Origin: an uncultured Bacteroidales bacterium
GTDB lineage: Bacteria; Bacteroidota; Bacteroidia; Bacteroidales; VadinHA17
Length of the DNA stretch: 64,000 nucleotides
Reading direction: 5' to 3'
NCBI GenBank assembly: GCA_963816345.1
Contig: CAWFKI010000004.1
Span: forward strand, 151,967 to 215,966
Part shown: in pieces, positions 47,885 through 59,897 of the stretch
Layout of the letters: each line of letters begins with the position of its first letter
Position numbering within the stretch: position 1 is the first letter of the stretch
The notes under the pieces: model-generated
Told to the model about the DNA's origin: nothing
What the model saw: only the letters and a program-made list of their open reading frames with translations
The model's database searches: none
Made by a program: the position numbers and the translations under genes

Positions 47885-49054
47885 CTATAAATCCGGCTTC
47901 TTACCGGTAACAGCCTTCTGAATTAACTGCACCATCTTTTTCCCTGTGTGGACCAGCTCAGGAACCGGGTCCAGGACAATGGAGCGAAGCTCTGATTTGG
48001 CAAGATTGATCGGATACTTTTTCTTAGAGAACATATTGCTGACAAAGGTCTTTATTGCAGTAGCTGCAAAGTAAAATGTTCCGGAAGAATAATCAGGGTA
48101 ATCGAAGGGGATCCCCATTGAATATGCTGCTGACAGGACCGGGAAGTTAACTCCCATATTTTTGGAACCTTCAAGTGAGCTCCAGTATCTTGCATTGAAA
48201 TCAATAAGGACATATGTCCCTTTTTTAGAATCAAACCTGAAATCGAGATGAGCAATTCCCGTATAATTCAGCTTGCTGACAATGGCTGAGGTAAGATCAT
48301 AAAGCTCCTTGTTCTTTACGAATTCAATCCCCCTGGCATAGGAGAGCTGACCTGAAACAAGTCCCTTCTGAATTGTATAAAAAAGAATTTTTCCATCAAT
48401 TGCAAAAAAGCTCATATCTATATCATAGCCATTTATATATTCCTGTATTAAATAAGTTTTGGCATAGACATCACTGCTTTCAAGCTCGGATTTCAGGAAC
48501 TCCTTACTTCTGATCATCTTTATTCCCTTGCCCCCAATGCCTTTGAAAGGCTTTAACAGAACCGGATAGGATAACGAATCCAATAACTTCTCTGTTACGG
48601 TATCTTTATTTATGCGTAACGATCTTGAGGCAGGAAAGCCATTTTGTTCAAGCCAGCTGTTCAGATTCCATTTATCATTAATTGTATCTATAGTATTAGG
48701 ATCTGATACCGGGTGAATCCTGGCTAGCTGTTCCAGTTCAGCCCTCTTCTGATATAAAAGTTTTGAAATCCACTCCCGTGTTGGGATAATAAGGTCGGCT
48801 GAGGTTTTTAATATATATTCCTTTACGAGCCCTTCAAAATTTTCTTCATTGAATGGTTCAACTTTATAATAGTTTCCAAGATACCTGGAATACCTGAAAT
48901 GGTTTAACTTCTGCCTCGAGTTTACAAGCACATCCAGCTTGATGTTGGGGTGACCGGAAAAACTTCTCAGCAAAGGAAGCACAAAGGGAGAATTATCATC
49001 AAGTATCAGGATCTTTAAAGGCTCTGTCATCATAGCTATCATAATTATAAACAT
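47885..49054 (-). CDS. ATP-grasp domain carboxylate-amine ligase-like protein
   Basis: NDKW, YPVLLKP..GIGGKGI, LIQEYING, HLDF...LIDFNARYW. Confidence 0.82.
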   Translation of the reverse strand: MFIIMIAMMTEPLKILILDDNSPFVLPLLRSFSGHPNIKLDVLVNSRQKLNHFRYSRYLGNYYKVEPFNEENFEGLVKEYILKTSADLIIPTREWISKLLYQKRAELEQLARIHPVSDPNTIDTINDKWNLNSWLEQNGFPASRSLRINKDTVTEKLLDSLSYPVLLKPFKGIGGKGIKMIRSKEFLKSELESSDVYAKTYLIQEYINGYDIDMSFFAIDGKILFYTIQKGLVSGQLSYARGIEFVKNKELYDLTSAIVSKLNYTGIAHLDFRFDSKKGTYVLIDFNARYWSSLEGSKNMGVNFPVLSAAYSMGIPFDYPDYSSGTFYFAATAIKTFVSNMFSKKKYPINLAKSELRSIVLDPVPELVHTGKKMVQLIQKAVTGKKPDL

Positions 49055-49124
49055 TTAAAGATATTAATTTAACTTATTTATCCTGAGTTCAGGGAAAAAA
49101 TTAACGGGCTTCACCGGCTAAAGC

Positions 49125-50312
49125 TTAAAAGGTGTGTAATAAAAATCTTTGATTAAAACAGATATTTATTGAGATATTATAATCGAATATTTTCTCTTTT
49201 GTATCATAATATCCTTCAAATCCGGTAGTTAACAATATACTTTTCCCCAGGCGCTTTGAATATCCAAGCTTGCCAATGGCGAGACTGCGGTTGTTTTCAA
49301 CATATCCCGGAGTTACTGTAGAAACACTCTGATAAATAGCTTCACCTTTTGGCCCGTAAAACTTATCAGCGTACCAGTAAGATAATTTTAACAGGAAGGG
49401 GCCTTCAAAAAACAAAATATTCGGGTAAACGGCCCAGCCATTATTTATTGTAGGATATTCGGCCCACCCCCCTGAAGTGCGCGGATCCGAAACCCATCTG
49501 CCATTATAGACTTTCAGCGGATCGGAGGTCAGCTTCCCGTAAAGGAAAAACTCGGGCCGGAACCTGAAACCCCTGAATAACCTGTCATCATTTTTATAAT
49601 CAAGATAAATGCCTGAACCCAGGTTCATAATCGTTTCAATTGACTGTTTTGGCCGGTTAATCTGTCCCCCCCTGTGTGTAAAAATAGTATGCAGGGGCAG
49701 GGAAAGCCTGAATTCTGAATTTTTAAAAATCTCATAATCAGCTGATATGCCAAAAGTAAGCCGCTCCTGACCGGAATCACCATACCATATGAAATTATCC
49801 CAGCTTAGCCAGACATCCGAATTAAATCGTTTTGTCTTAAATAAGAACTGTACGCCGTCTTCGACCTGGTTAAAATAGAACCTTTCCGGATCAAGCAGAG
49901 GCTCAGGCATATTGTGATTGCCAGCCGACTTAAGTGTCCCAAGGACTATTTGAAAGCCCGGTGTGATCTGCTGAGAAAATGTAAAAACCGGTAAAACTTT
50001 GAAATAATTATCTCTGCCTGCGAATTTCAGCAAATGAATACCTCCTTCGACCGATGCCCGGGGTGATGGATGATATTCCAGCCGGGTTGTCAGCCAATAA
50101 CCAATCAGGGTATAACCTTCAACAATATTGTTAAAATATTCATTGTCCTTTACAAAGTTTGAATTGGCAATTTTCAGGAAAAGCCTGTTGCTGTCAGACT
50201 CTGATATCTCTTCCCGTTTCAGCAGAAGGTTTTCTGCAAACTGAGCCTGCAGCTGAAAGATTTCTCCGCAACAAAACGCCAAAACAAACAGCAGCGATAT
50301 CCTCCGAAACAT
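49125..50312 (-). CDS. Hypothetical outer-membrane beta-barrel protein
   Basis: Signal peptide; DNEYFN..VEGYTLIG, H.GGQI; aromatic-rich strands. Confidence 0.65.
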   Translation of the reverse strand: MFRRISLLFVLAFCCGEIFQLQAQFAENLLLKREEISESDSNRLFLKIANSNFVKDNEYFNNIVEGYTLIGYWLTTRLEYHPSPRASVEGGIHLLKFAGRDNYFKVLPVFTFSQQITPGFQIVLGTLKSAGNHNMPEPLLDPERFYFNQVEDGVQFLFKTKRFNSDVWLSWDNFIWYGDSGQERLTFGISADYEIFKNSEFRLSLPLHTIFTHRGGQINRPKQSIETIMNLGSGIYLDYKNDDRLFRGFRFRPEFFLYGKLTSDPLKVYNGRWVSDPRTSGGWAEYPTINNGWAVYPNILFFEGPFLLKLSYWYADKFYGPKGEAIYQSVSTVTPGYVENNRSLAIGKLGYSKRLGKSILLTTGFEGYYDTKEKIFDYNISINICFNQRFLLHTF

Positions 50313-50545: not shown

Positions 50546-51748
50546 ATGCCAGGTACTGAACTTTTCGGGAAAGAGGAAAAAAAAGAAATAATGGACGTCC
50601 TTGAAACAGGGATCCTGTTTCGTTATAATCATGATCAGCAAAGAAACGGACACTGGAAGGCCCGGACGTTTGAGAAGGAGCTTGCTGAATATCATGGAGT
50701 TCGTTTTGCCCATCTTACCTCGAGCGGAACCACTGCTGATAATCTTGCAATTGCCGCCTGTGGTATCGGCGCCGGAGATGAGGTTATCGTTCCGACTTTT
50801 ACCTTCATTGCCCCGGTGGAAGCCGTTTTGAATGCCGGTGCAATTCCTGTGTTTGCCGATATAGATGAGACCTTATGCCTTTCGGCTGAAAGTATTGAAG
50901 CTGTCATAACCCCGCGTACAAAAGCCGTCATACTCGTACATATGTGCGGGGCAATGGCACAGATCGACAGGATATCGGATCTCTGCAAAAAGCATGGATT
51001 GATTCTTATCGAGGATACAGCCCAGGCACTCGGGGCATCATTTAAGGGAAAACCCCTTGGCACTTTTGGTAAAATTGCAATCTATTCCTTCGATTTCTTC
51101 AAGATCGTCACTGCTGCAGAAGGGGGTGCAATAATTACGGATGACCCTGTTCTTTATGAAATTGCCGCACAGCATTCCGACCATGGTCATACCCATACAG
51201 GAAATAACAGGGGTGCTGAACCACATAATATTATCGGAACAAATTACCGCATTAGCGAACTGCATGCTGCAATAGGACTGGCACAATTCAGAAAGCTGCC
51301 TTATATCCTGGAGCATCAGCGTTCAAGCAAGTTAAAGCTTGAAAAATTCCTCGCGGGATTTTCCCAGGTGAGTTTTAGAAAAATTCCTGACAAAAACGGA
51401 GACAGCGCAACATTCCTCGATTTCTTCCTGGAGAATGAAGCTATCGCAAGAAGTGTACTGAAAGAATTTGATAAGGAGGGTGTCAGCTATGCTTACTGGT
51501 ATGATAACAACTACCACTATTTTAAAAACTGGGAACATGTCAGGCAGCTGAAAACTGCTGCGAAACTGGCTGTTTCATTGTTTGAGCCTCCACAGGAGTA
51601 TAAAACCCTGAAAATACCTGCATCTGATAAAATCATGTCACGGTTAATCTCCCTGCAGATCAGGATCACCTGGTCTGAAAGTGAACTAAATGCCCTTACT
51701 GAAAAAATTGGCAGGGCATTTAAGGTTGTGTTTGACCGGACGAGGTGA
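50546..51748 (+). CDS. kdnA: 8-amino-3,8-dideoxy-manno-octulosonate transaminase KdnA-like (DegT/DnrJ family)
   Basis: MPG.ELFG.EE, FRYN.D..RN..WK, VHMCG, SFD..K.VT..EGG, SDHGH.H.G..RGAE.H, YWYDNN.HY..NW.H; these match the Shewanella KdnA pattern as recalled; paired with kdnB. Confidence 0.85.
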   Translation: MPGTELFGKEEKKEIMDVLETGILFRYNHDQQRNGHWKARTFEKELAEYHGVRFAHLTSSGTTADNLAIAACGIGAGDEVIVPTFTFIAPVEAVLNAGAIPVFADIDETLCLSAESIEAVITPRTKAVILVHMCGAMAQIDRISDLCKKHGLILIEDTAQALGASFKGKPLGTFGKIAIYSFDFFKIVTAAEGGAIITDDPVLYEIAAQHSDHGHTHTGNNRGAEPHNIIGTNYRISELHAAIGLAQFRKLPYILEHQRSSKLKLEKFLAGFSQVSFRKIPDKNGDSATFLDFFLENEAIARSVLKEFDKEGVSYAYWYDNNYHYFKNWEHVRQLKTAAKLAVSLFEPPQEYKTLKIPASDKIMSRLISLQIRITWSESELNALTEKIGRAFKVVFDRTR

Positions 51749-51778
51749 GAATATTAATAATATTAACACGATTTACTT

Positions 51779-52855
51779 ATGTACAGGATTATCAAAACAG
51801 TTCCCAAATGTATCTTCGGTAAAGGAAGTTTTAACCAGTTAAAAGATATCCTGGACGAACGAAGGAGCGGTACCGGTGCGAACATAGTTTTTCTGGCTGA
51901 TGATTTTTTTAAAGATAAACCGCTTATGAAGCGGATCCCGGTTCAGGGATCAGACACACTTATCTGGATCAATGTTGACGATGAGCCTAAAACGGTTACG
52001 GTTGACAAAATACGCGATCAGATAATAAACAGCGTTAAGCCTTTGCCCTCAGCAGTGGCAGGTATAGGCGGAGGAAGTGTTATGGATTACGCCAAGGCCA
52101 TTTCAGTTATGATTACAAATGAAGGTCCTGCATCGAGGTATCAGGGACTTAACCTCGCCTCCAACCCTGCTGTCTATCACATAGGTATCCCTACGTTATC
52201 AGGCACAGGTGCTGAGGTATCCATGACAGCAGTTCTCACCGGCCCCGAGAAGAAACTTGGAATCAAAGGGGAATTTACCCCGTTTGATCTCATAGTTCTT
52301 GATCCTGAACTTATCCGTGATGCTCCGGCAAACCAGCGTTTCTATACAGGAATGGATGCTTATATCCATAATGTGGAATCGTTAAACGGGCTTAGCAAAA
52401 ACTCTATCAGCGATTCCTATGCAATACAATCTCAGTCGTTATGCCGGGAAGCTTTTCTGAATGATGAACTCAGCCGCGAACAGGCGGATGAAAAGCTGAT
52501 GGTTGCATCTTATTTCGGAGGTTTGAGCATTGGTTTCAGCGAAGTGGGAGTGTGTCATGCCTTGTCTTACGGCCTTTCATATGTTCTCGGATTACACCAT
52601 GGAATAGCTAACTGCATTGCATTTAACCAGCTGGAAGATGTTTACGGTGATGATGTCAGGGAATTCCACCGGATGGTCTCAAAAAATAATATCGATATTC
52701 CACAGGGCATTTCAAAAGGATTGACGGAAGAGCAGCTTATGAAAATGGCAGATATTTCCATCAGGCTTGAACATATGTGGCTACATGCCTACGGTACTGA
52801 ATGGAAAAAAACGGTGGACAGGGAAAAGATCATAAAGTGGATTCTCAGGATGTAA
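51779..52855 (+). CDS. kdnB: Kdo 8-oxidase KdnB-like (iron-containing ADH fold)
   Basis: VPK.IFG.GSF.QL, NVDDEP, GGGS.MD.AK, HIGIPT.SGTGAE, YTGMD.YIH.VESL, CHALSYGL..VLG.HHG. Confidence 0.85.
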   Translation: MYRIIKTVPKCIFGKGSFNQLKDILDERRSGTGANIVFLADDFFKDKPLMKRIPVQGSDTLIWINVDDEPKTVTVDKIRDQIINSVKPLPSAVAGIGGGSVMDYAKAISVMITNEGPASRYQGLNLASNPAVYHIGIPTLSGTGAEVSMTAVLTGPEKKLGIKGEFTPFDLIVLDPELIRDAPANQRFYTGMDAYIHNVESLNGLSKNSISDSYAIQSQSLCREAFLNDELSREQADEKLMVASYFGGLSIGFSEVGVCHALSYGLSYVLGLHHGIANCIAFNQLEDVYGDDVREFHRMVSKNNIDIPQGISKGLTEEQLMKMADISIRLEHMWLHAYGTEWKKTVDREKIIKWILRM

Positions 52856-52931
52856 AAAAAGAATCCGGACCAGCTGCCGGAATTATTATTGAAAATACAT
52901 CTTTTACATTAATTACCCTGCAGGGCTGACA

Positions 52932-53603
52932 TCAGTACACTTCAGTCTTTGTGACGATTTTATTCCTGGCTGCCAGATAATCCTCATAATCACCCGTGAA
53001 TCTGATCCGTTTTTCGACGGTAAGTTCAAAATTGCCGTTCAGTCCGGTTAACAATTCACAGATTTCCCTTACTGCATGGGTCCCGCCCGATGAGGCCGAG
53101 ATGTAACTGCAGATTTTATTTTGCTCGATATAATTGACCAGAAGAGGATTTGACCTCCTCCTTACAAAAAATGACAACCCGCACATACGGGCAGCATCGA
53201 TATCGATAACATCATCAAAAAAAAAGAGTATGCTTTCAGGGGTTATTTTAGCCGTGTCACAGATCCTTTCAATGGCAACCCTCTTGTTTTTCAGGTTCAT
53301 AAAGATGCCGTCAAAATGTTCCCTTCCGGAAAATTCGACGGCAGTCTGGTTATTCATACCTGTTATTATATAGAGATGGGCATTCCTGCCATATTTTAAC
53401 CAGTAGCTGAACCTGAGAAGGTTGATCCCCATGGAATCGATTTCTGAGAAGGGGCTGCCGGCATCACCGCTTTTCATCCCGTTATTGAAGACCCCATCCC
53501 AGTCGAAAACAAATGCCCTGATATTATCAAGAGAGGCTCCGATCTTTTCTGCAGAAGTCAAAAAGGTTCCTCCCAGGCCGGAAAATACCTGTTCTATATC
53601 CAT
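52932..53603 (-). CDS. KdsC-like HAD phosphatase (Kdo-8-P phosphatase family)
   Basis: FDWDGVF, D.MG, IITG, DD.ID, GG.HAVREICE; third gene of the kdsA operon. Confidence 0.8.
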   Translation of the reverse strand: MDIEQVFSGLGGTFLTSAEKIGASLDNIRAFVFDWDGVFNNGMKSGDAGSPFSEIDSMGINLLRFSYWLKYGRNAHLYIITGMNNQTAVEFSGREHFDGIFMNLKNKRVAIERICDTAKITPESILFFFDDVIDIDAARMCGLSFFVRRRSNPLLVNYIEQNKICSYISASSGGTHAVREICELLTGLNGNFELTVEKRIRFTGDYEDYLAARNKIVTKTEVY

Positions 53604-54610
53604 TTCAACACATCCTGAATATCAATAAGTCCCCTGGGCTTATCGTTTTCAACAATTACAAGATTATCGACTTCCTTTGTTTTAAACAAACTGACTATAT
53701 CGGAAAGGGTTGTATTAATGTCTACTGATACGGGGGAATTGCTTTCCAGCTCCGAGAATTTCTTATGAAGCGCCGTGCTGTTCCCTGTTTTCAGCAATCT
53801 CCTGAGATCGCCGTCCGTAAAGATACGGTGCATATCTCCTTTGTCATTCAGGACTATTGCTGCTCCAAGCTTTGAATTCGTCATCAGCATAAGGCCATCA
53901 AGCACAGTTGAGTTGTAATTCAGAAAGACATTTTCCGAAATAACGAGATCCATGGCTTTGATCGTAAGCAGTTCTGTATGCTCAACAAATTGTTGTATCC
54001 CCAGTTCTGTGAAATGATTCTGGGAAAGCTGCTTCAGAATATTCCACGGGACAGTAACAGTATGAGCGCCGAGATTTATTGCATTTCTGACATGTTCAAC
54101 ATTCCTTACGGATGAGAACATGATCTTCGTTTTATAATTATATTTTTCAACGGCTTTGATGCATTGTTCAACGAGTGACAATGCATCATGTCCCTGATCC
54201 TGAAGTCTGCCGACAAGTATACAGACATAGGTGGCTCCGGCACAAAATGCAAGATATGCCTGCTGAAGTGTATAAACCAGATGAAGGTTTACTTTTATCC
54301 CGTTGTCTGTGAGCATTTTGCAGGCTTTTGTTCCTTCCAGAGAGATCGGTATTTTAAATACTACCTTTTCTTTATTCAATCCGAGGGATAACAGCCTTTC
54401 AGCCTCCTTTACGATTTCCTCCGCGGTATTTCCGAGCGCCTCTACCTGAAGTATGGGAACCAGCTTCGAAAGGTTCAGTATGGCAGCATCAACATCCTTA
54501 ATCCCCTCCCTGTGCATGAATGTCGGAGTAGTTGTAAGTCCTGTCAGGTATCCAAGTTTATTGGCTTCGCGAACCTCTTCGATTTTTATTGAATCAAGAT
54601 ATAATTCCAT
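53594..54610 (-). CDS. Transaldolase/fructose-6-phosphate-aldolase-fold domain fused to a KdsD-type CBS pair
   Basis: MELYLDS, GLTTTPTF, Schiff-base Lys in VVFKIP, AGATYV...GR; C-terminal IFTDGDLRR...GLIDIQD CBS pair. Confidence 0.85.
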   Translation of the reverse strand: MELYLDSIKIEEVREANKLGYLTGLTTTPTFMHREGIKDVDAAILNLSKLVPILQVEALGNTAEEIVKEAERLLSLGLNKEKVVFKIPISLEGTKACKMLTDNGIKVNLHLVYTLQQAYLAFCAGATYVCILVGRLQDQGHDALSLVEQCIKAVEKYNYKTKIMFSSVRNVEHVRNAINLGAHTVTVPWNILKQLSQNHFTELGIQQFVEHTELLTIKAMDLVISENVFLNYNSTVLDGLMLMTNSKLGAAIVLNDKGDMHRIFTDGDLRRLLKTGNSTALHKKFSELESNSPVSVDINTTLSDIVSLFKTKEVDNLVIVENDKPRGLIDIQDVLKWI

Positions 54611-54622
54611 GATAATTTTTGT

Positions 54623-55453
54623 TTATTTAGTACGATATTTCTTTTCGGTATAATGAAGTTCCATTAAAGGTTTAATAAATTCCTCCAGGTTATCAAGCTT
54701 CAGCTGGCTGGCAGCATCGCATTTGGCATTGGGAGGATCGGGGTGTACTTCTATGAATATCCCATCCACCCCTGCAGCAACACCGGCACGTGAGATAACA
54801 GGAAGATACTCTCTGTTTCCTCCTGCAGGATCCGAACTGGGGATTCCATATCTGCGGATGCTATGAGTAATATCAAATACGACCGGATAGTTGAATTTTC
54901 TCATCTCATAAAAGCTTCTCGGGTCAACAACAAGGTCGTTGTAACCGAACGTATAACCTCTTTCAGTGAGAATAATATTATTGTTACCCTGTGATTCAAT
55001 CTTTTTAACAGGCTTTCCCATATTCTCAGGGGCAATGAACTGTCCGTGCTTAAGATTGACTGCTTTTCCTGCCCGTGCTGCTTCAACAACAAGAATTGTC
55101 TGCATGCATAGATAAGCCGGGATCTGAATAATATCAAGTACATCAGCGGCAGCTTTTATCTGATCGGGATAATGAATATCTGAAAGCAGGGGAAGATCAA
55201 AGCTGTTCCTGATCTTTTCAAGCATCCTCAATCCCTCCTCCAGACCCGGACCGGAATAAAAATCAACGGAGCTCCTGTTGTCTTTCATAAAGGAGGATTT
55301 GTAAATAACCGGGATATCCAGTTTTTCAGAAACTTTCTTAAGAGTTTCTCCGGCTTTCATCATTATTCCTTCTTCCTCGATGACACATGGACCTGAAATG
55401 AGAAAAAACTTCTCATCGCTCAAAACCAGGTCCCCGACCTTGACTCTGTTCAT
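54623..55453 (-). CDS. kdsA: Metal-dependent KDO8P synthase family protein with divergent signature motifs
   Basis: GPCVIE, LTERG..FGY..LVVD, DITHS, FIEVHPDP..AKCD; KDNRSS replaces KANRS and PAYLCM replaces PAFLxR. Confidence 0.85.
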   Translation of the reverse strand: MNRVKVGDLVLSDEKFFLISGPCVIEEEGIMMKAGETLKKVSEKLDIPVIYKSSFMKDNRSSVDFYSGPGLEEGLRMLEKIRNSFDLPLLSDIHYPDQIKAAADVLDIIQIPAYLCMQTILVVEAARAGKAVNLKHGQFIAPENMGKPVKKIESQGNNNIILTERGYTFGYNDLVVDPRSFYEMRKFNYPVVFDITHSIRRYGIPSSDPAGGNREYLPVISRAGVAAGVDGIFIEVHPDPPNAKCDAASQLKLDNLEEFIKPLMELHYTEKKYRTK

Positions 55454-55595: not shown

Positions 55596-57077
55596 TCACA
55601 TGGCTATTTTCCTGAAGGAAAGGCCGGAATTGAGTCCGAATCCAAGAAACAGCATCACATAAAAAAATATAAATCCGTACTGACCCATCAGGATTGATTC
55701 TATAATGCACCACAGAAAGAACAAAGCAATAATGCCTTCAAAGACGGATATATAGTTGATGCCCCTGGCAATGTATTTGTTCTGCTTCCAGGAATCCTGT
55801 CTGGAACGGATGTTGAACTTCGGAGTGCGCTGAAAAGAGCTGTTTTTCCCGAGAAAAGCCTCTGCAATTCCGATCGCGTTGTGCAGAGACATACCCAGTG
55901 TTATTACCAGGAAGAACCAGAAGTAGACAGGGAAAAGTAAAACTGACCAGGATGTATGATTTATTGTAAAATATGCTATCCCGTAATAGATCAGCAGAAT
56001 TATTGTAGGAAGTATAAAAACAGAAGCAAATACTGAGATTCCATTATATTCCGGATGGGCTTTCAGAATAACAATTACCGGAAAACTTAGCAATGAGGTA
56101 AGAAATGAAAAGAAGAAAACTGTACTGTTAAGCATATGAAAGATTCCATTGGCTTTAGTCATTGCCGGGAACGATGAATGGATAACTTTCTTATAGTTCT
56201 TCAGGAAATTCTGGGTGCCTCCCTTCATCCATCTGAATTGCTGAACCCTGATAGCGCTCAGGGTAACCGGCAATTCAGCCGGAGTTACAACATCTTCAAG
56301 GTACTTGAATTTCCAGCCTTTCACCTGTGCCCGGTAACTAAGATCAAGATCTTCAATTAGTGTATCATCCTCCCAGTTCCCGGCATCAAGGATGGCAGTT
56401 TTTCGCCACACACCAGCTGTTCCGTTAAAATTTATGAAGTACCCCTTGCTGTTTCTTCCTGATTGCTCTATTGTAAAATGAACATCTATGGCAAACGCCT
56501 GGATCTGCGTCAGCAATGAATAGTTTCTGTTCAAATGGCCCCAGCGGGTCTGAACCGCGCCTATTTTTTCATCTGAAAAGCAGGGTATAGTCTTCTTCAG
56601 GAAATCGGGATAAGGAAGATAATCAGCATCAAATATTGCAATAAATTCACCTCTGGCAGATCTCAGACCTTCCTTCAGGGCGCCTGCTTTATAGCCTTCC
56701 CTGCCTGCCCGGTGAATATACTTTATGTCAAGCCCGGAATCAGAGAGTTCTTTTATTTTGTTTTTCAGAATGGCTGACGTTTCATCGGTCGAATCGTCAA
56801 GGATCTGTATTTCAAGTTTATCGGGCGGGTAATCCATTCCGGCTATATTACCGAGCAACCGGTCGGCCACATAGCGTTCGTTATAGACAGGAAGTTGTAT
56901 GGTTACAACCGGATAGTTATCCGGTTGTTTCAGCTCTGAGTGATATAGCCTGTTTTTTCTCCTGCTTTTTAAATACAGGATTGCAAGCTGCAGTTGAAAG
57001 AGGCTGAACAGAAGAATGCTTAGAAGAGAGAATATATAAACTATTAATATTACAATGTGCAGGATTCCAATAAGCAT
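55596..57077 (-). CDS. GT2 processive glycosyltransferase (cellulose synthase-like, CslA-like)
   Basis: QLPVYNE, DDSTD, KAGAL, FDAD, FNGTAG, EDLDLS, QQFRWMKG, RTPK. Confidence 0.9.
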   Translation of the reverse strand: MLIGILHIVILIVYIFSLLSILLFSLFQLQLAILYLKSRRKNRLYHSELKQPDNYPVVTIQLPVYNERYVADRLLGNIAGMDYPPDKLEIQILDDSTDETSAILKNKIKELSDSGLDIKYIHRAGREGYKAGALKEGLRSARGEFIAIFDADYLPYPDFLKKTIPCFSDEKIGAVQTRWGHLNRNYSLLTQIQAFAIDVHFTIEQSGRNSKGYFINFNGTAGVWRKTAILDAGNWEDDTLIEDLDLSYRAQVKGWKFKYLEDVVTPAELPVTLSAIRVQQFRWMKGGTQNFLKNYKKVIHSSFPAMTKANGIFHMLNSTVFFFSFLTSLLSFPVIVILKAHPEYNGISVFASVFILPTIILLIYYGIAYFTINHTSWSVLLFPVYFWFFLVITLGMSLHNAIGIAEAFLGKNSSFQRTPKFNIRSRQDSWKQNKYIARGINYISVFEGIIALFFLWCIIESILMGQYGFIFFYVMLFLGFGLNSGLSFRKIAM

Positions 57078-58481: not shown

Positions 58482-59897
58482 TTGATAGCCATGAATACGA
58501 TACTAACCTTACTCAGGTTCTGCCGGGGGATCCAGGGAAGACCGGAAAACAGGTTTTCATTCCCTTACAGCTTAAGAATATTATCTGAATTAAGCCTGCT
58601 GATAATGATTGCCCTCTTTTCCGGGACGCAGTATGTTTCCGCGGTTCCGAGTTATGCAAGACAGACAGGCATGTCATGCTCTGCATGTCATAATGCTTTT
58701 CCTGAGCTCAATGCATTCGGAAGACAGTTTAAGCTGAACGGTTATAATCTCACCACTGTTAATACAATTGATGAGACATACGCTAACAAGAACAAGCTGA
58801 AACTACTGACTATTTCGCCTCTGTCAGCAATGGCCCAGATATCCTTTACCAACCTGAACAAAAGTATACCCGGTACGCAAAATAACAATGCCGAATTTCC
58901 ACAGCAGCTGAGCTTATTTTACGCGGGTTCTATAACGCCAAGGATCGGCACCTTCATTCAGATAACATATGATCCGCAGAGCGGGACCTTTGGGATGGAC
59001 AATGCCGATATCAGGTATTCGAAGCAGACAAATCTGGCTTCGAAGGATTTTATCTACGGATTTACATTAAATAACAACCCGACTGTGCAGGATATATGGA
59101 ACAGTACTCCTGCCTGGGGGTTTCCCTATGCTGCCTCAGCAGTGGCGCCTTCCCCTTCAGCTGCAACCATGCTGGAAGGTGGCCTTGCGCAACAGGTTGT
59201 CGGACTGGGAACTTACGGATTCTTTGATAATTTGATCTATGCAGAATTCAGTGTATACCGGTCAGCCCAACAGGGTGCACCTGATCCTCCCGGTGCAGAT
59301 GCCCAGATGGTTATAAACGGAGTTACACCTTACTGGCGGTTGGCATTACAGCATCAGTTTTCAGATAATTACATTGAACTGGGAACATACGGTCTGGCTG
59401 CTAAAATTTATCCCACCGGCATATCCGGGCAGACAGATAATTATACTGATATCGGGCTTGATCTGCAGTTTGAACATTCCCTCTCAAACGCTACGTTCAT
59501 TCTGCATTCTTCCTGGATCCATGAGGGACAAAAGCTGAATGCATCCTTCCCGGCCGGGAATGTGCAGAACAGCAAGTATATTCTTCAATCCTTTAAAGTA
59601 GATGGCAGTATTTATTTTAAAAAAGGCTATGGATTAACCCTCGGATATTATTTGGTGGCAGGTGATATGGATATGGTAGTATATACACCCGGAGAGGTCA
59701 ACGGAAGCAGGGCAGGAAAACCAAACAGTGACGGGCTCATTGTAAAGGCCAGCTGGATGCCGTGGTATAATACCCAGTTTTCATTGCAATATACTTTGAA
59801 TAATAAATTTAACGGGTCAGGAAGTAATTATGACGGCTTTAACAGGAATGCCTCTGATAATAACTCCCTGTACCTGCTGGTCTGGCTTAATTTCTAG
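58482..59897 (+). CDS. cyc2: Cyc2-like fused monoheme cytochrome c / outer-membrane porin (start codon uncertain)
   Basis: Signal ends at VSA; mature N-terminus VPSYARQTGMSCSACHNAFPELNAFGRQFKLNGY matches the Cyc2 pattern (AxPxF/YARQT-x3-CxxCH-x3-PxL-x2-FGRxFK-x2-GY); beta-barrel body; terminal Phe (LVWLNF). Confidence 0.8.
   Translation: MIAMNTILTLLRFCRGIQGRPENRFSFPYSLRILSELSLLIMIALFSGTQYVSAVPSYARQTGMSCSACHNAFPELNAFGRQFKLNGYNLTTVNTIDETYANKNKLKLLTISPLSAMAQISFTNLNKSIPGTQNNNAEFPQQLSLFYAGSITPRIGTFIQITYDPQSGTFGMDNADIRYSKQTNLASKDFIYGFTLNNNPTVQDIWNSTPAWGFPYAASAVAPSPSAATMLEGGLAQQVVGLGTYGFFDNLIYAEFSVYRSAQQGAPDPPGADAQMVINGVTPYWRLALQHQFSDNYIELGTYGLAAKIYPTGISGQTDNYTDIGLDLQFEHSLSNATFILHSSWIHEGQKLNASFPAGNVQNSKYILQSFKVDGSIYFKKGYGLTLGYYLVAGDMDMVVYTPGEVNGSRAGKPNSDGLIVKASWMPWYNTQFSLQYTLNNKFNGSGSNYDGFNRNASDNNSLYLLVWLNF

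Follow-up and report, generated by a model that had tools for sequence, protein, structure and literature searches.

The present analysis deals with a gene of an uncultured Bacteroidales bacterium (assembly GCA_963816345.1), which lies in a stretch of 64,000 nucleotides of contig CAWFKI010000004.1; this whole stretch is called the window below. The gene (53594..54610, minus strand) encodes a protein of 338 aa, hereafter the fusion, in which a barrel of the transaldolase/fructose-6-phosphate aldolase (Tal/FSA) superfamily is followed by a CBS pair of the KdsD type. It is placed between kdsA and a KdsC-like gene, and it is considered here as a candidate source of arabinose 5-phosphate (A5P) for the synthesis of 3-deoxy-D-manno-octulosonate (Kdo). 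The protein was characterized with Pfam and NCBIfam models, alignments to structures of the Protein Data Bank (PDB) and an AlphaFold2 (AF2) model.

The barrel domain covers residues 1-215 (53966..54610), and the CBS pair of KdsD/KpsF type covers residues 218-338 (53597..53959), both on the minus strand. Pfam places TAL_FSA (PF00923) at residues 3-202 with 135.1 bits against a cut-off of 27 and a CBS domain at residues 287-338 with 48.1 bits. With NCBIfam, residues 218-326 align to positions 156-264 of the KpsF/GutQ model (TIGR00393), which are its CBS part, at 47.7 bits and hence far below the cut-off of 203.7, and residues 226-336 align to the KdsD model PRK10892. Among solved structures the tail finds its best match in a CBS fragment named 'Arabinose 5-phosphate isomerase' (4o9k, E 1.7e-10), and 3k2v is matched too. 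The motif of the pair is RIFTDGDLRR (residues 261-271), while KdsD proteins of the same phylum have GIITDGDLRR or GIITDGDIRR; the KdsD-type pair with IFTDGDLRR, which had first been read from the sequence alone, is confirmed by the NCBIfam and 4o9k matches. The SIS isomerase domain (PF01380) was not matched in the fusion protein by either Pfam or NCBIfam.

For the barrel, the best solved structures are the short transaldolases of Bacillus subtilis (3r8r), Thermotoga (1vpx) and Thermoplasma acidophilum (3s0c), with E 2e-36 to 6e-33, root mean square deviation (rmsd) of 1.4-1.6, target-normalised TM of 0.91-0.94 and 34-35% identity. The AF2 model, which was made with 33 family sequences as input, has a mean pLDDT of 95, and its best Foldseek match is the Thermoplasma enzyme 3s0c (E 1.2e-21, rmsd 1.4 over 216 columns). 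When compared with the solved transaldolases and checked at the codon level, the fusion retains Asp6 (codon 54593-54595), Glu57 within LQVEA (54440-54442), the Schiff-base Lys86 (54353-54355), Asn108 and the aligned phosphate site of Arg135, Ser167 and Arg169; the glutamate acid/base, the lysine, the aspartate and the phosphate site are those of the short transaldolases. It differs from transaldolases in that TTNP has become TTTP (N28T), N-x-T-L has become NLHL (T110H, His110 codon 54281-54283) and S-P-F has become C-I-L (S130C and F132L, Cys130 codon 54221-54223 and Leu132 codon 54215-54217), all these codons being on the minus strand. Of these, Asp6, the Glu of QVEA, the Schiff-base lysine and the changed motifs had been listed in the original prediction, and they hold in the PDB alignments and in the codons.

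On the FSA/TalC equivalog TIGR00875 (fsa_talC_mipB) the fusion reaches 161.9 bits, which is under the cut-off of 245.95, and it is also far under the cut-offs of the remaining FSA and transaldolase equivalogs of NCBIfam. The fusion is a member of the Tal/FSA superfamily that departs from ordinary transaldolases and FSA both in equivalog score and in three active-site residues. E. coli FsaA, of the short decameric subfamily, shares the fold, the barrel length, the Schiff-base lysine, Asp6, Asn108 and the Arg/Ser/Arg(Lys) phosphate site with the fusion; their identity is about 26% in the structural alignment (5zol), and wild-type-length chains score 64.9-66.2 bits by sequence. Unlike the fusion, FSA has no CBS pair. 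We take Gln59, Thr109, Ala129 and Tyr131 of FSA to be the positions of Glu57, His110, Cys130 and Leu132 of the fusion, and we know of no FSA that is part of a Kdo operon.

Directly upstream lies kdsA, the gene of Kdo-8-phosphate synthase (54623..55453, minus strand; NF003543 341 bits against a cut-off of 242, TIGR01362 332.4 bits against 314), and its stop is separated from the ATG of the fusion by 12 nt. Directly downstream lies a gene for a KdsC-like HAD phosphatase paralogue of 223 aa (52932..53603, minus strand), whose ATG overlaps the 3' end of the fusion by 10 nt. The fusion is translationally coupled between kdsA and this phosphatase gene, and the tight operon that had been described from the sequence stands with the 12-nt gap and 10-nt overlap. 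The HAD protein has a DxD motif and is matched by PDB KdsC 2r8e (E 4.5e-11), with PRK09484 at 47.1 bits (cut-off for KdsC 208) and TIGR01670 at 41 bits, both below cut-off; it is a divergent paralogue despite a canonical KdsC elsewhere in the genome.

The source assembly (5.03 Mb, 7 contigs, 96% complete) was surveyed for the other Kdo genes. The kdsA of the window is the sole KdsA match above cut-off in the whole genome; KdsB (204.7 bits), a domain of the Kdo transferase WaaA (158.9 bits) and the canonical KdsC (G000:C5:2220084-2220539, 118.6 bits) are present. KpsF/KdsD was not found in this genome, where the kpsF model scores highest on the fusion's own CBS pair; the operon had been said to have no SIS-domain kdsD, and this holds for the operon and for the whole genome. 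The SIS proteins of the genome are GlmS, one GmhA, one AgaS-family protein and one weak double-SIS protein of 333 aa that resembles HxlB/GlmS/GlmD-type enzymes. Two more TAL_FSA genes lie elsewhere in the genome, one of them for a classical transaldolase (280.8 bits). From this inventory of KdsA, KdsB, WaaA, KdsC and a transaldolase without KpsF/KdsD, the cell appears to make Kdo and to own a housekeeping transaldolase, and yet to have no known A5P source.

The fusion belongs to a family. A word-index search gave 120 clusters with 59-99% identity to it, all of which have TAL_FSA and CBS except P0079 (305 aa); the named clusters come from Bacteroidales, Raineya, Thermonema and similar, and their public names are 'transaldolase', 'transaldolase family protein', 'TalC/MipB family fructose-6-phosphate aldolase' and 'CBS domain-containing protein'. 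Conservation was compared between 125 full-length members and 23 ordinary short transaldolases of the same phylum. His110, Cys130 and Leu132 are each found in 125/125 members, and the same sites are T, S and F in 23/23 ordinary enzymes; we call His110/Cys130/Leu132 in a Tal/FSA barrel the HCL signature. Lys86, Glu57, Asp6, Arg135, Ser167 and Arg169 are invariant in both groups. In the CBS motif, F264, T265, D266, G267, D268 and R271 are each present in 125/125 members and R270 in 124/125. Judged from these alignments, the changed active site of the barrel is under strong purifying selection, and decay of the window barrel to a pseudo-enzyme was rejected because the catalytic set is invariant.

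An exhaustive search of 1.84 billion representatives added further fusion-length proteins of 28-49% identity. Most of these retain His110/Cys130/Leu132 together with FTDGDxRR, and their position 28 is Asn or Thr; among the signature changes proposed earlier, H110, C130 and L132 are therefore defining, whereas N28T is not, because distant members keep Asn28. From the top 150 matches, 128 representatives of at least 195 aa were aligned, and these comprise 33 with H-C-L (11 fusion-length and 22 short) and 67 with T-S-F. Four fusion-length proteins of 28-38% identity (P0125, P0126, P0140 and P0152) have an intact FTDGDxRR and are without Lys86 and most barrel catalytic residues; they may be pseudo-enzymes or may carry a different N-terminal domain.

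Metagenome contigs were also scanned with an alignment of distant members, which gave 80 loci (28-50% identity). The patterns used for the metagenome and viral searches contained His110, while Cys130 and Leu132 were outside the metagenome patterns. All 76 metagenome open reading frames (ORFs) in which the nine key positions are readable have D-E-K-H-C-L-R-S-R; about 40 of the ORFs are fusions, and about 29 are barrels that stand alone and are complete at 211-231 aa. A quick maximum-likelihood tree of 83 barrels groups all 52 HCL rows in a single clade (SH-aLRT 99, branch 0.61), with the 31 ordinary rows outside it. The HCL signature is that of one well-supported clade, whose members may have or lack the CBS pair. 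The Tal/FSA plus CBS architecture pointed out originally is thus a conserved family, of which the CBS pair is an optional part. Longer fused forms, e.g. with KdsA, were not found at E <= 1e-20 among proteins of 593-2000 aa, which is weak evidence. Phage TalC was not counted as a family member: the phage records have at most 39.7% identity to the stand-alone HCL barrel, which is the range of ordinary transaldolases, this being a comparison of overall identity and not of the signature residues.

The distribution of the fusion was then set against that of KpsF/KdsD. In a phylum sample, 401 genomes were searched with the fusion protein, the kpsF model and the KdsA model, and the cross-table, which was read from the lists and is consistent with the tallies, gives 286 genomes with KdsA and KpsF, 10 with KdsA only, 2 with KpsF only and 103 with neither. 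Six of the 10 KdsA-only genomes carry the full-length fusion, which is absent from the other 391. These carriers (G000, G125, G195, G267, G311 and G371) belong to 5 families. In family f7, 19/21 genomes have KpsF, and the remaining two are precisely the carriers; KpsF without the fusion is seen in two further genomes of the genus of these carriers. In family f15, three genomes without KpsF and fusion are also without KdsA.

A second sample of 151 genomes (148 genera) was taken from the order of the window. A KpsF-type SIS match is present in 126 of these genomes, as a full-length form in 79 and as a SIS-only form in 47. The sample has 7 carriers, each of a different family, and they fall without exception in the remaining 25 genomes. 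The anti-correlation with kdsD that the original prediction had put forward for checking is therefore seen in both samples. The six new carriers of the order sample all match KdsA, five above cut-off and one at 309.8 bits. KdsA is missing from 13 of the 14 KpsF-less non-carriers tested, G420 being the exception; 4 other KpsF-less genomes fall outside this count. The only other genome of the genus of the window, G533, is 100% complete and shows the reciprocal state to the window genome: the fusion is absent without trace, and a SIS-only isomerase is present (164 bits), as is a canonical-type KdsA with 367.9 bits against 332 in the window. KdsA is present in all 24 carriers examined, the 12 genomes of the species-genome loci described below among them, and KpsF is above cut-off in 0/24; carriers also own an ordinary transaldolase. 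The HCL fusion and KpsF/KdsD have a complementary distribution. The SIS-only KpsF-like gene (47/151 genomes of the order sample) reaches from model position 1 to about 152 in frames of about 200-306 aa and replaces the SIS+CBS form, so the CBS pair is dispensable in the canonical isomerase too.

The linkage to kdsA is near-universal. In 12 species-genome loci (58-82% identity), kdsA directly upstream and a KdsC-like gene directly downstream were found in 11/12, and a kdnB/kdnA pair is adjacent in 8/12. For four further carriers of the phylum sample the order kdsA-fusion-HAD was found in G125, G195 and G311, and the fusion alone in G371; in the G195 locus kdnA-kdnB runs in the same direction as kdsA-fusion-HAD. 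Five of the six new order-sample carriers have kdsA within about 100 nt of the fusion. Among the metagenome loci, 65 have at least 900 nt upstream, and KdsA lies within 2.5 kb in 64 of them; in 50, kdsA is the immediate upstream gene, on the same strand and at most 400 nt away. KdsB was found in 18 and a KdsC-type gene in 8 of the 80 loci, and the SIS part of KdsD in 0/80. On predicted viral contigs there are 14 loci, all with the HCL signature; KdsA is upstream in 12, and the other 2 have less than 170 nt of flank. The proposed co-occurrence with Kdo genes is thus upheld almost everywhere for kdsA, and in only part of the loci for kdsC, kdsB and kdnAB. The place of the fusion in the operon is that of the canonical gene, as in the KpsF genomes G161, G109, G041 and G177 the KdsD/KpsF gene directly follows kdsA.

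Stand-alone HCL barrels, which have no CBS pair, also sit beside kdsA (metagenome L136-L169, viral L183-L193). Three marine metagenome loci of this kind continue with genes for a D-2-hydroxyacid dehydrogenase, a cytidylyltransferase and a second member of the DAHP-synthase family, and methyltransferase or radical-SAM genes lie between kdsA and the barrel; in locus L164 the gene next to the barrel matches a caudovirus prohead protease. These loci point to a wider ulosonic-acid module which is partly virus-borne.

The KdsA encoded next to the fusion is itself a variant. In the clade of the window, KANR[ST] has become KDNRS (A58D) and CRQT has become CMQT (R117M), and F114Y, K136H and Q200R are further changes, all invariant in the clade; K136H is restricted to it. 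Among metagenome KdsA proteins with Asp58 (n=9), R117M is found in 7/9. The stand-alone HCL barrels pair with canonical KdsA (KANRT/CRQT). The motifs KANRS and CRQT are presumably those lining the A5P phosphate and PEP (phosphoenolpyruvate) sites, and the substitutions may have altered the A5P-phosphate site or may belong to an interface between subunits or with a partner. A structure prediction of the complex gave no support for a physical complex of the module KdsA with the fusion.

Beyond the operon, the window has a kdnA-like gene for the transaminase of 8-amino-3,8-dideoxy-octulosonate (Kdo8N) at 50546..51748 (plus strand; PDB 5k8b E 6.7e-140, Pfam DegT_DnrJ_EryC1 281.8 bits) and a kdnB-like gene for the Kdo 8-oxidase of the Fe-ADH family at 51779..52855 (plus strand; PDB 5k8c, '3-deoxy-alpha-D-manno-octulosonate 8-oxidase', E 6.9e-114). 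They are close relatives of Shewanella kdnA and kdnB, and are neighbours and not part of the enzyme. The pair (50546-52855) converges on the kdsA-fusion-HAD operon and does not diverge from it. A hairpin, which a consensus scan predicts to be terminator-like on either strand, lies between kdnB and the HAD gene (52864..52881). The fusion is not specific to Kdo8N, since kdnA/kdnB are found in only 8/12 close loci and in few distant ones. In locus L024 (8545-9619) the kdnB-like gene matches in two pieces (query 1-249 and 249-358) overlapping by one codon, which suggests a frameshift or a sequencing error. A PgaC/CelA-like GT2 synthase lies directly upstream of the window kdsA, and the other genes near the operon (47885-50312, 55596-57077 and 58482-59897, GT2 included) encode an ATP-grasp enzyme, a protein of 395 aa with no Pfam family and with a start that is signal-peptide-like by eye, and a protein of 471 aa with a CSACH (CxxCH-type) motif.

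We propose, with a probability of about 0.7, that the gene is a non-orthologous replacement of KdsD which would supply A5P for the Kdo pathway in organisms without SIS-domain KdsD/KpsF; the identity of the product as A5P is what we infer from the sequences and their context. In the mechanism envisaged, the Tal/FSA TIM barrel would have been re-tooled by the changes of Thr110 to His, Ser130 to Cys and Phe132 to Leu, with the Schiff-base and phosphate sites retained, and the fusion would deliver A5P to KdsA, which uses A5P and PEP, in one operon with the KdsC-like phosphatase. Compared with KdsD/KpsF/GutQ, which consist of SIS and a CBS pair, the fusion has the same C-terminal CBS pair, the xI[IF]TDGDLRR motif, the operon place after kdsA and, as proposed, the same product. 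Its chemistry must differ from that of KdsD, since there is no SIS domain and the catalytic domain is an unrelated TIM barrel. KdsD, like the HCL barrels, occurs with and without the CBS pair; being common to KdsD and fusion and optional in both, the pair joined to the barrel probably serves the same regulation in the two.

Catalysis would proceed, with less confidence than the role itself, through a Schiff base of Lys86 on C1 of an aldose. Such an A5P imine would use the existing phosphate site, because the aldehyde carbon of A5P is as far from the phosphate as is C2 of fructose 6-phosphate, and it would leave the pocket for the C1 hydroxymethyl group empty. Residues 110, 130 and 132 presumably lie at this pocket, going by transaldolase structures. 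One route may be 2-epimerisation of ribose 5-phosphate by de-protonation and re-protonation of an enamine, or in a variant by retro-aldol and aldol steps via an enzyme-bound glycolaldehyde enamine and glyceraldehyde 3-phosphate (G3P); the other may be an FSA-like aldol addition of glycolaldehyde and G3P. The epimerisation is favoured, as ribose 5-phosphate is abundant. A Schiff-base route from ribulose 5-phosphate to A5P was considered and rejected on chemical reasoning, as the C2 imine would rearrange to a covalently stuck amino sugar.

There is a precedent for the second route, as passages of PMC6900487 give E. coli FsaA as interconverting A5P with glycolaldehyde plus G3P (KM 0.65 mM, kcat 3.6 per s) and as running in the A5P-forming direction in vivo, and the formation or cleavage of A5P from these two compounds by FsaA is also stated in part of PMC9947464. 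The Discussion of the latter, citing other work, says that ribose 5-phosphate is also a product of TalB F178Y, whose change corresponds to the position of Leu132; for TalB F178Y and Fsa, a section of PMC8208507 gives the product as 2S,3R, which leaves the ribose 5-phosphate point unsettled. A transaldolase-like enzyme in Kdo synthesis, or a Tal/FSA+CBS fusion, was not found described in the full-text literature, which excludes subscription journals.

Several observations weigh against the proposal that the fusion replaces KdsD. All residues known to be indispensable in transaldolase/FSA are kept, so that ordinary Tal/FSA activity fits the sequence. Free glycolaldehyde is not an obvious abundant metabolite, and to our knowledge there is no natural ribose-5-phosphate 2-epimerase. 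The changes in the module KdsA could mean a somewhat different substrate. Five genomes, namely G079, G151 and G283 of family f12, G077 of f38 and G420, have KdsA above cut-off with neither a KpsF-type SIS match at E <= 1e-25 nor the fusion; in the first four of them the sole transaldolase has the ordinary residues T-S-F and is encoded on a different contig from kdsA, and no candidate A5P source was found beside kdsA, where the neighbours are an MgsA-type ATPase, FtsW/RodA, methyltransferases and a histidine phosphatase. For these five, either a third A5P source may exist or detection may fail. Carrier G402 also has a SIS-only KpsF-like gene. The fusion is not linked to kdsA in G371, G444 and the Cytophagales locus L027 (genome G409), the last of which has no kdsA, KdsC-like or kdnB/kdnA neighbours, and there is no kdsA within 4.5 kb upstream in L123; the neighbours of the unlinked fusions of G371 and L027 are unrelated housekeeping genes. 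Among carriers of different families the module KdsA has 63-68% identity, whereas KdsA from genomes with KpsF in those families shares only 44-48% with it. The kdsA-fusion-HAD module seems to have moved horizontally as a unit; as the carriers are also partly kin, the independent events are fewer than the carrier genomes. Lastly, the HCL loci cannot show how many non-HCL barrels adjoin kdsA, because the search patterns included His110.

Other explanations were weighed on the same evidence. The fusion may have the proposed role and yet be an aldose-ketose isomerase of ribulose 5-phosphate and A5P, working by non-covalent ene-diol chemistry like triose-phosphate isomerase, with Glu57 as base, His110 as proton shuttle and Lys86 in an electrostatic part. 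This would reproduce the exact reaction of the missing KdsD, and the most conserved novelty is the His for Thr (125/125 members and 76/76 metagenome ORFs), at a position which we take to be the holder of the catalytic water in transaldolase. Such an isomerase would have to be non-covalent, since a Schiff base at C2 of ribulose 5-phosphate cannot lead to a released aldose, whereas Lys86 and the Schiff-base apparatus (D6, E57, N108) are invariant, as expected for covalent catalysis. The comparison with triose-phosphate isomerase is tentative, we know of no isomerase within the Tal/FSA superfamily, and we regard this explanation as unlikely. Somewhat less likely again is an enzyme of a Kdo-type pathway that is not an A5P source, i.e. 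one which makes another aldose phosphate for the variant KdsA or acts on Kdo-8-phosphate or a Kdo derivative, for example in the Kdo8N branch, with A5P supplied by some enzyme not yet recognised. The co-varying KdsA changes (A58D with R117M, K136H) in the presumed substrate-binding motifs agree with this, as do the divergence of the adjacent HAD protein when a canonical KdsC exists, the adjacency of kdnA/kdnB in most close loci and in G195, the larger gene clusters around the marine stand-alone barrels, and the five genomes that have KdsA but get by without either enzyme. On this explanation, though, there is no reason why KdsD should be lost in every one of the 24 carriers, HCL barrels pair with canonical KANRT/CRQT KdsA too, and kdnAB is absent at most loci. 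The adjoining KdsA moreover has to make Kdo for KdsB and WaaA, because it is the sole KdsA of the genome and above the equivalog cut-off.

It is very improbable that the fusion is an ordinary pentose-phosphate transaldolase or fructose-6-phosphate aldolase with a CBS tail, lying near kdsA since both draw on pentose phosphates. The clear TAL_FSA match, the full set of core catalytic residues and public annotation as 'transaldolase family protein' or 'TalC/MipB family fructose-6-phosphate aldolase' speak for such an enzyme; against it are the sub-cut-off score on the FSA/TalC equivalog, the ordinary transaldolase that carriers own as well, and the three sites which are invariant in ordinary enzymes and invariantly different here, in a separate clade. 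It would also explain neither the complementarity with KdsD nor the linkage to kdsA (64/65 loci). We give hardly any credence to a divergent SIS protein, e.g. the 333-aa double-SIS protein, being the real A5P isomerase, with the fusion as a regulator or sensor. That protein of G000 has a faint kpsF match (20 bits), and G405, G402 and G404 weakly match the SIS part of kpsF (48.8, 41 and 33.2 bits) in frames of 352-370 aa. Such matches, however, occur in only 3 of the 17 carriers searched, the proteins are closer to GlmS/GlmD/HxlB-type isomerases than to KpsF, they are unlinked to kdsA, and a pure regulator needs no invariant Schiff-base lysine and phosphate site.

A wider and much more tentative idea, which we think has less than an even chance of being right, is that the HCL barrels are a new enzyme class of Lys86 Schiff-base ribose-5-phosphate 2-epimerases making A5P from the pentose-phosphate pool. 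In that case kdsA and the HCL barrel might form a self-sufficient mobile two-gene module for Kdo-8-phosphate, which would have repeatedly displaced kdsA and kdsD in Bacteroidota and would be carried also on marine viral contigs, and the CBS pair might be an exchangeable feedback module of two unrelated catalytic folds.

Most Gram-negative bacteria require Kdo for their lipopolysaccharide, and the pathway of KdsD, KdsA, KdsC and KdsB is regarded both as universal and as a target for antibiotics. We rate the fusion as a new functional variant of a known fold filling a known pathway step. If the replacement of KdsD is true, a second and unrelated enzyme for the first step would close the 'missing gene' in many Bacteroidota and marine lineages, hundreds of 'transaldolase' annotations would have to be corrected, and KdsD inhibitors could not cover all Kdo producers. 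It would be a natural example of how three substitutions in the active site change an aldolase fold, and it may add either a new reaction, pentose-phosphate 2-epimerisation via a lysine Schiff base, or a naturally occurring aldolase with high affinity for A5P, which is what synthetic glycolaldehyde-assimilation pathways seek according to the Discussion of PMC9947464. The CBS pair that is common to both folds further suggests a portable regulatory module for Kdo flux.

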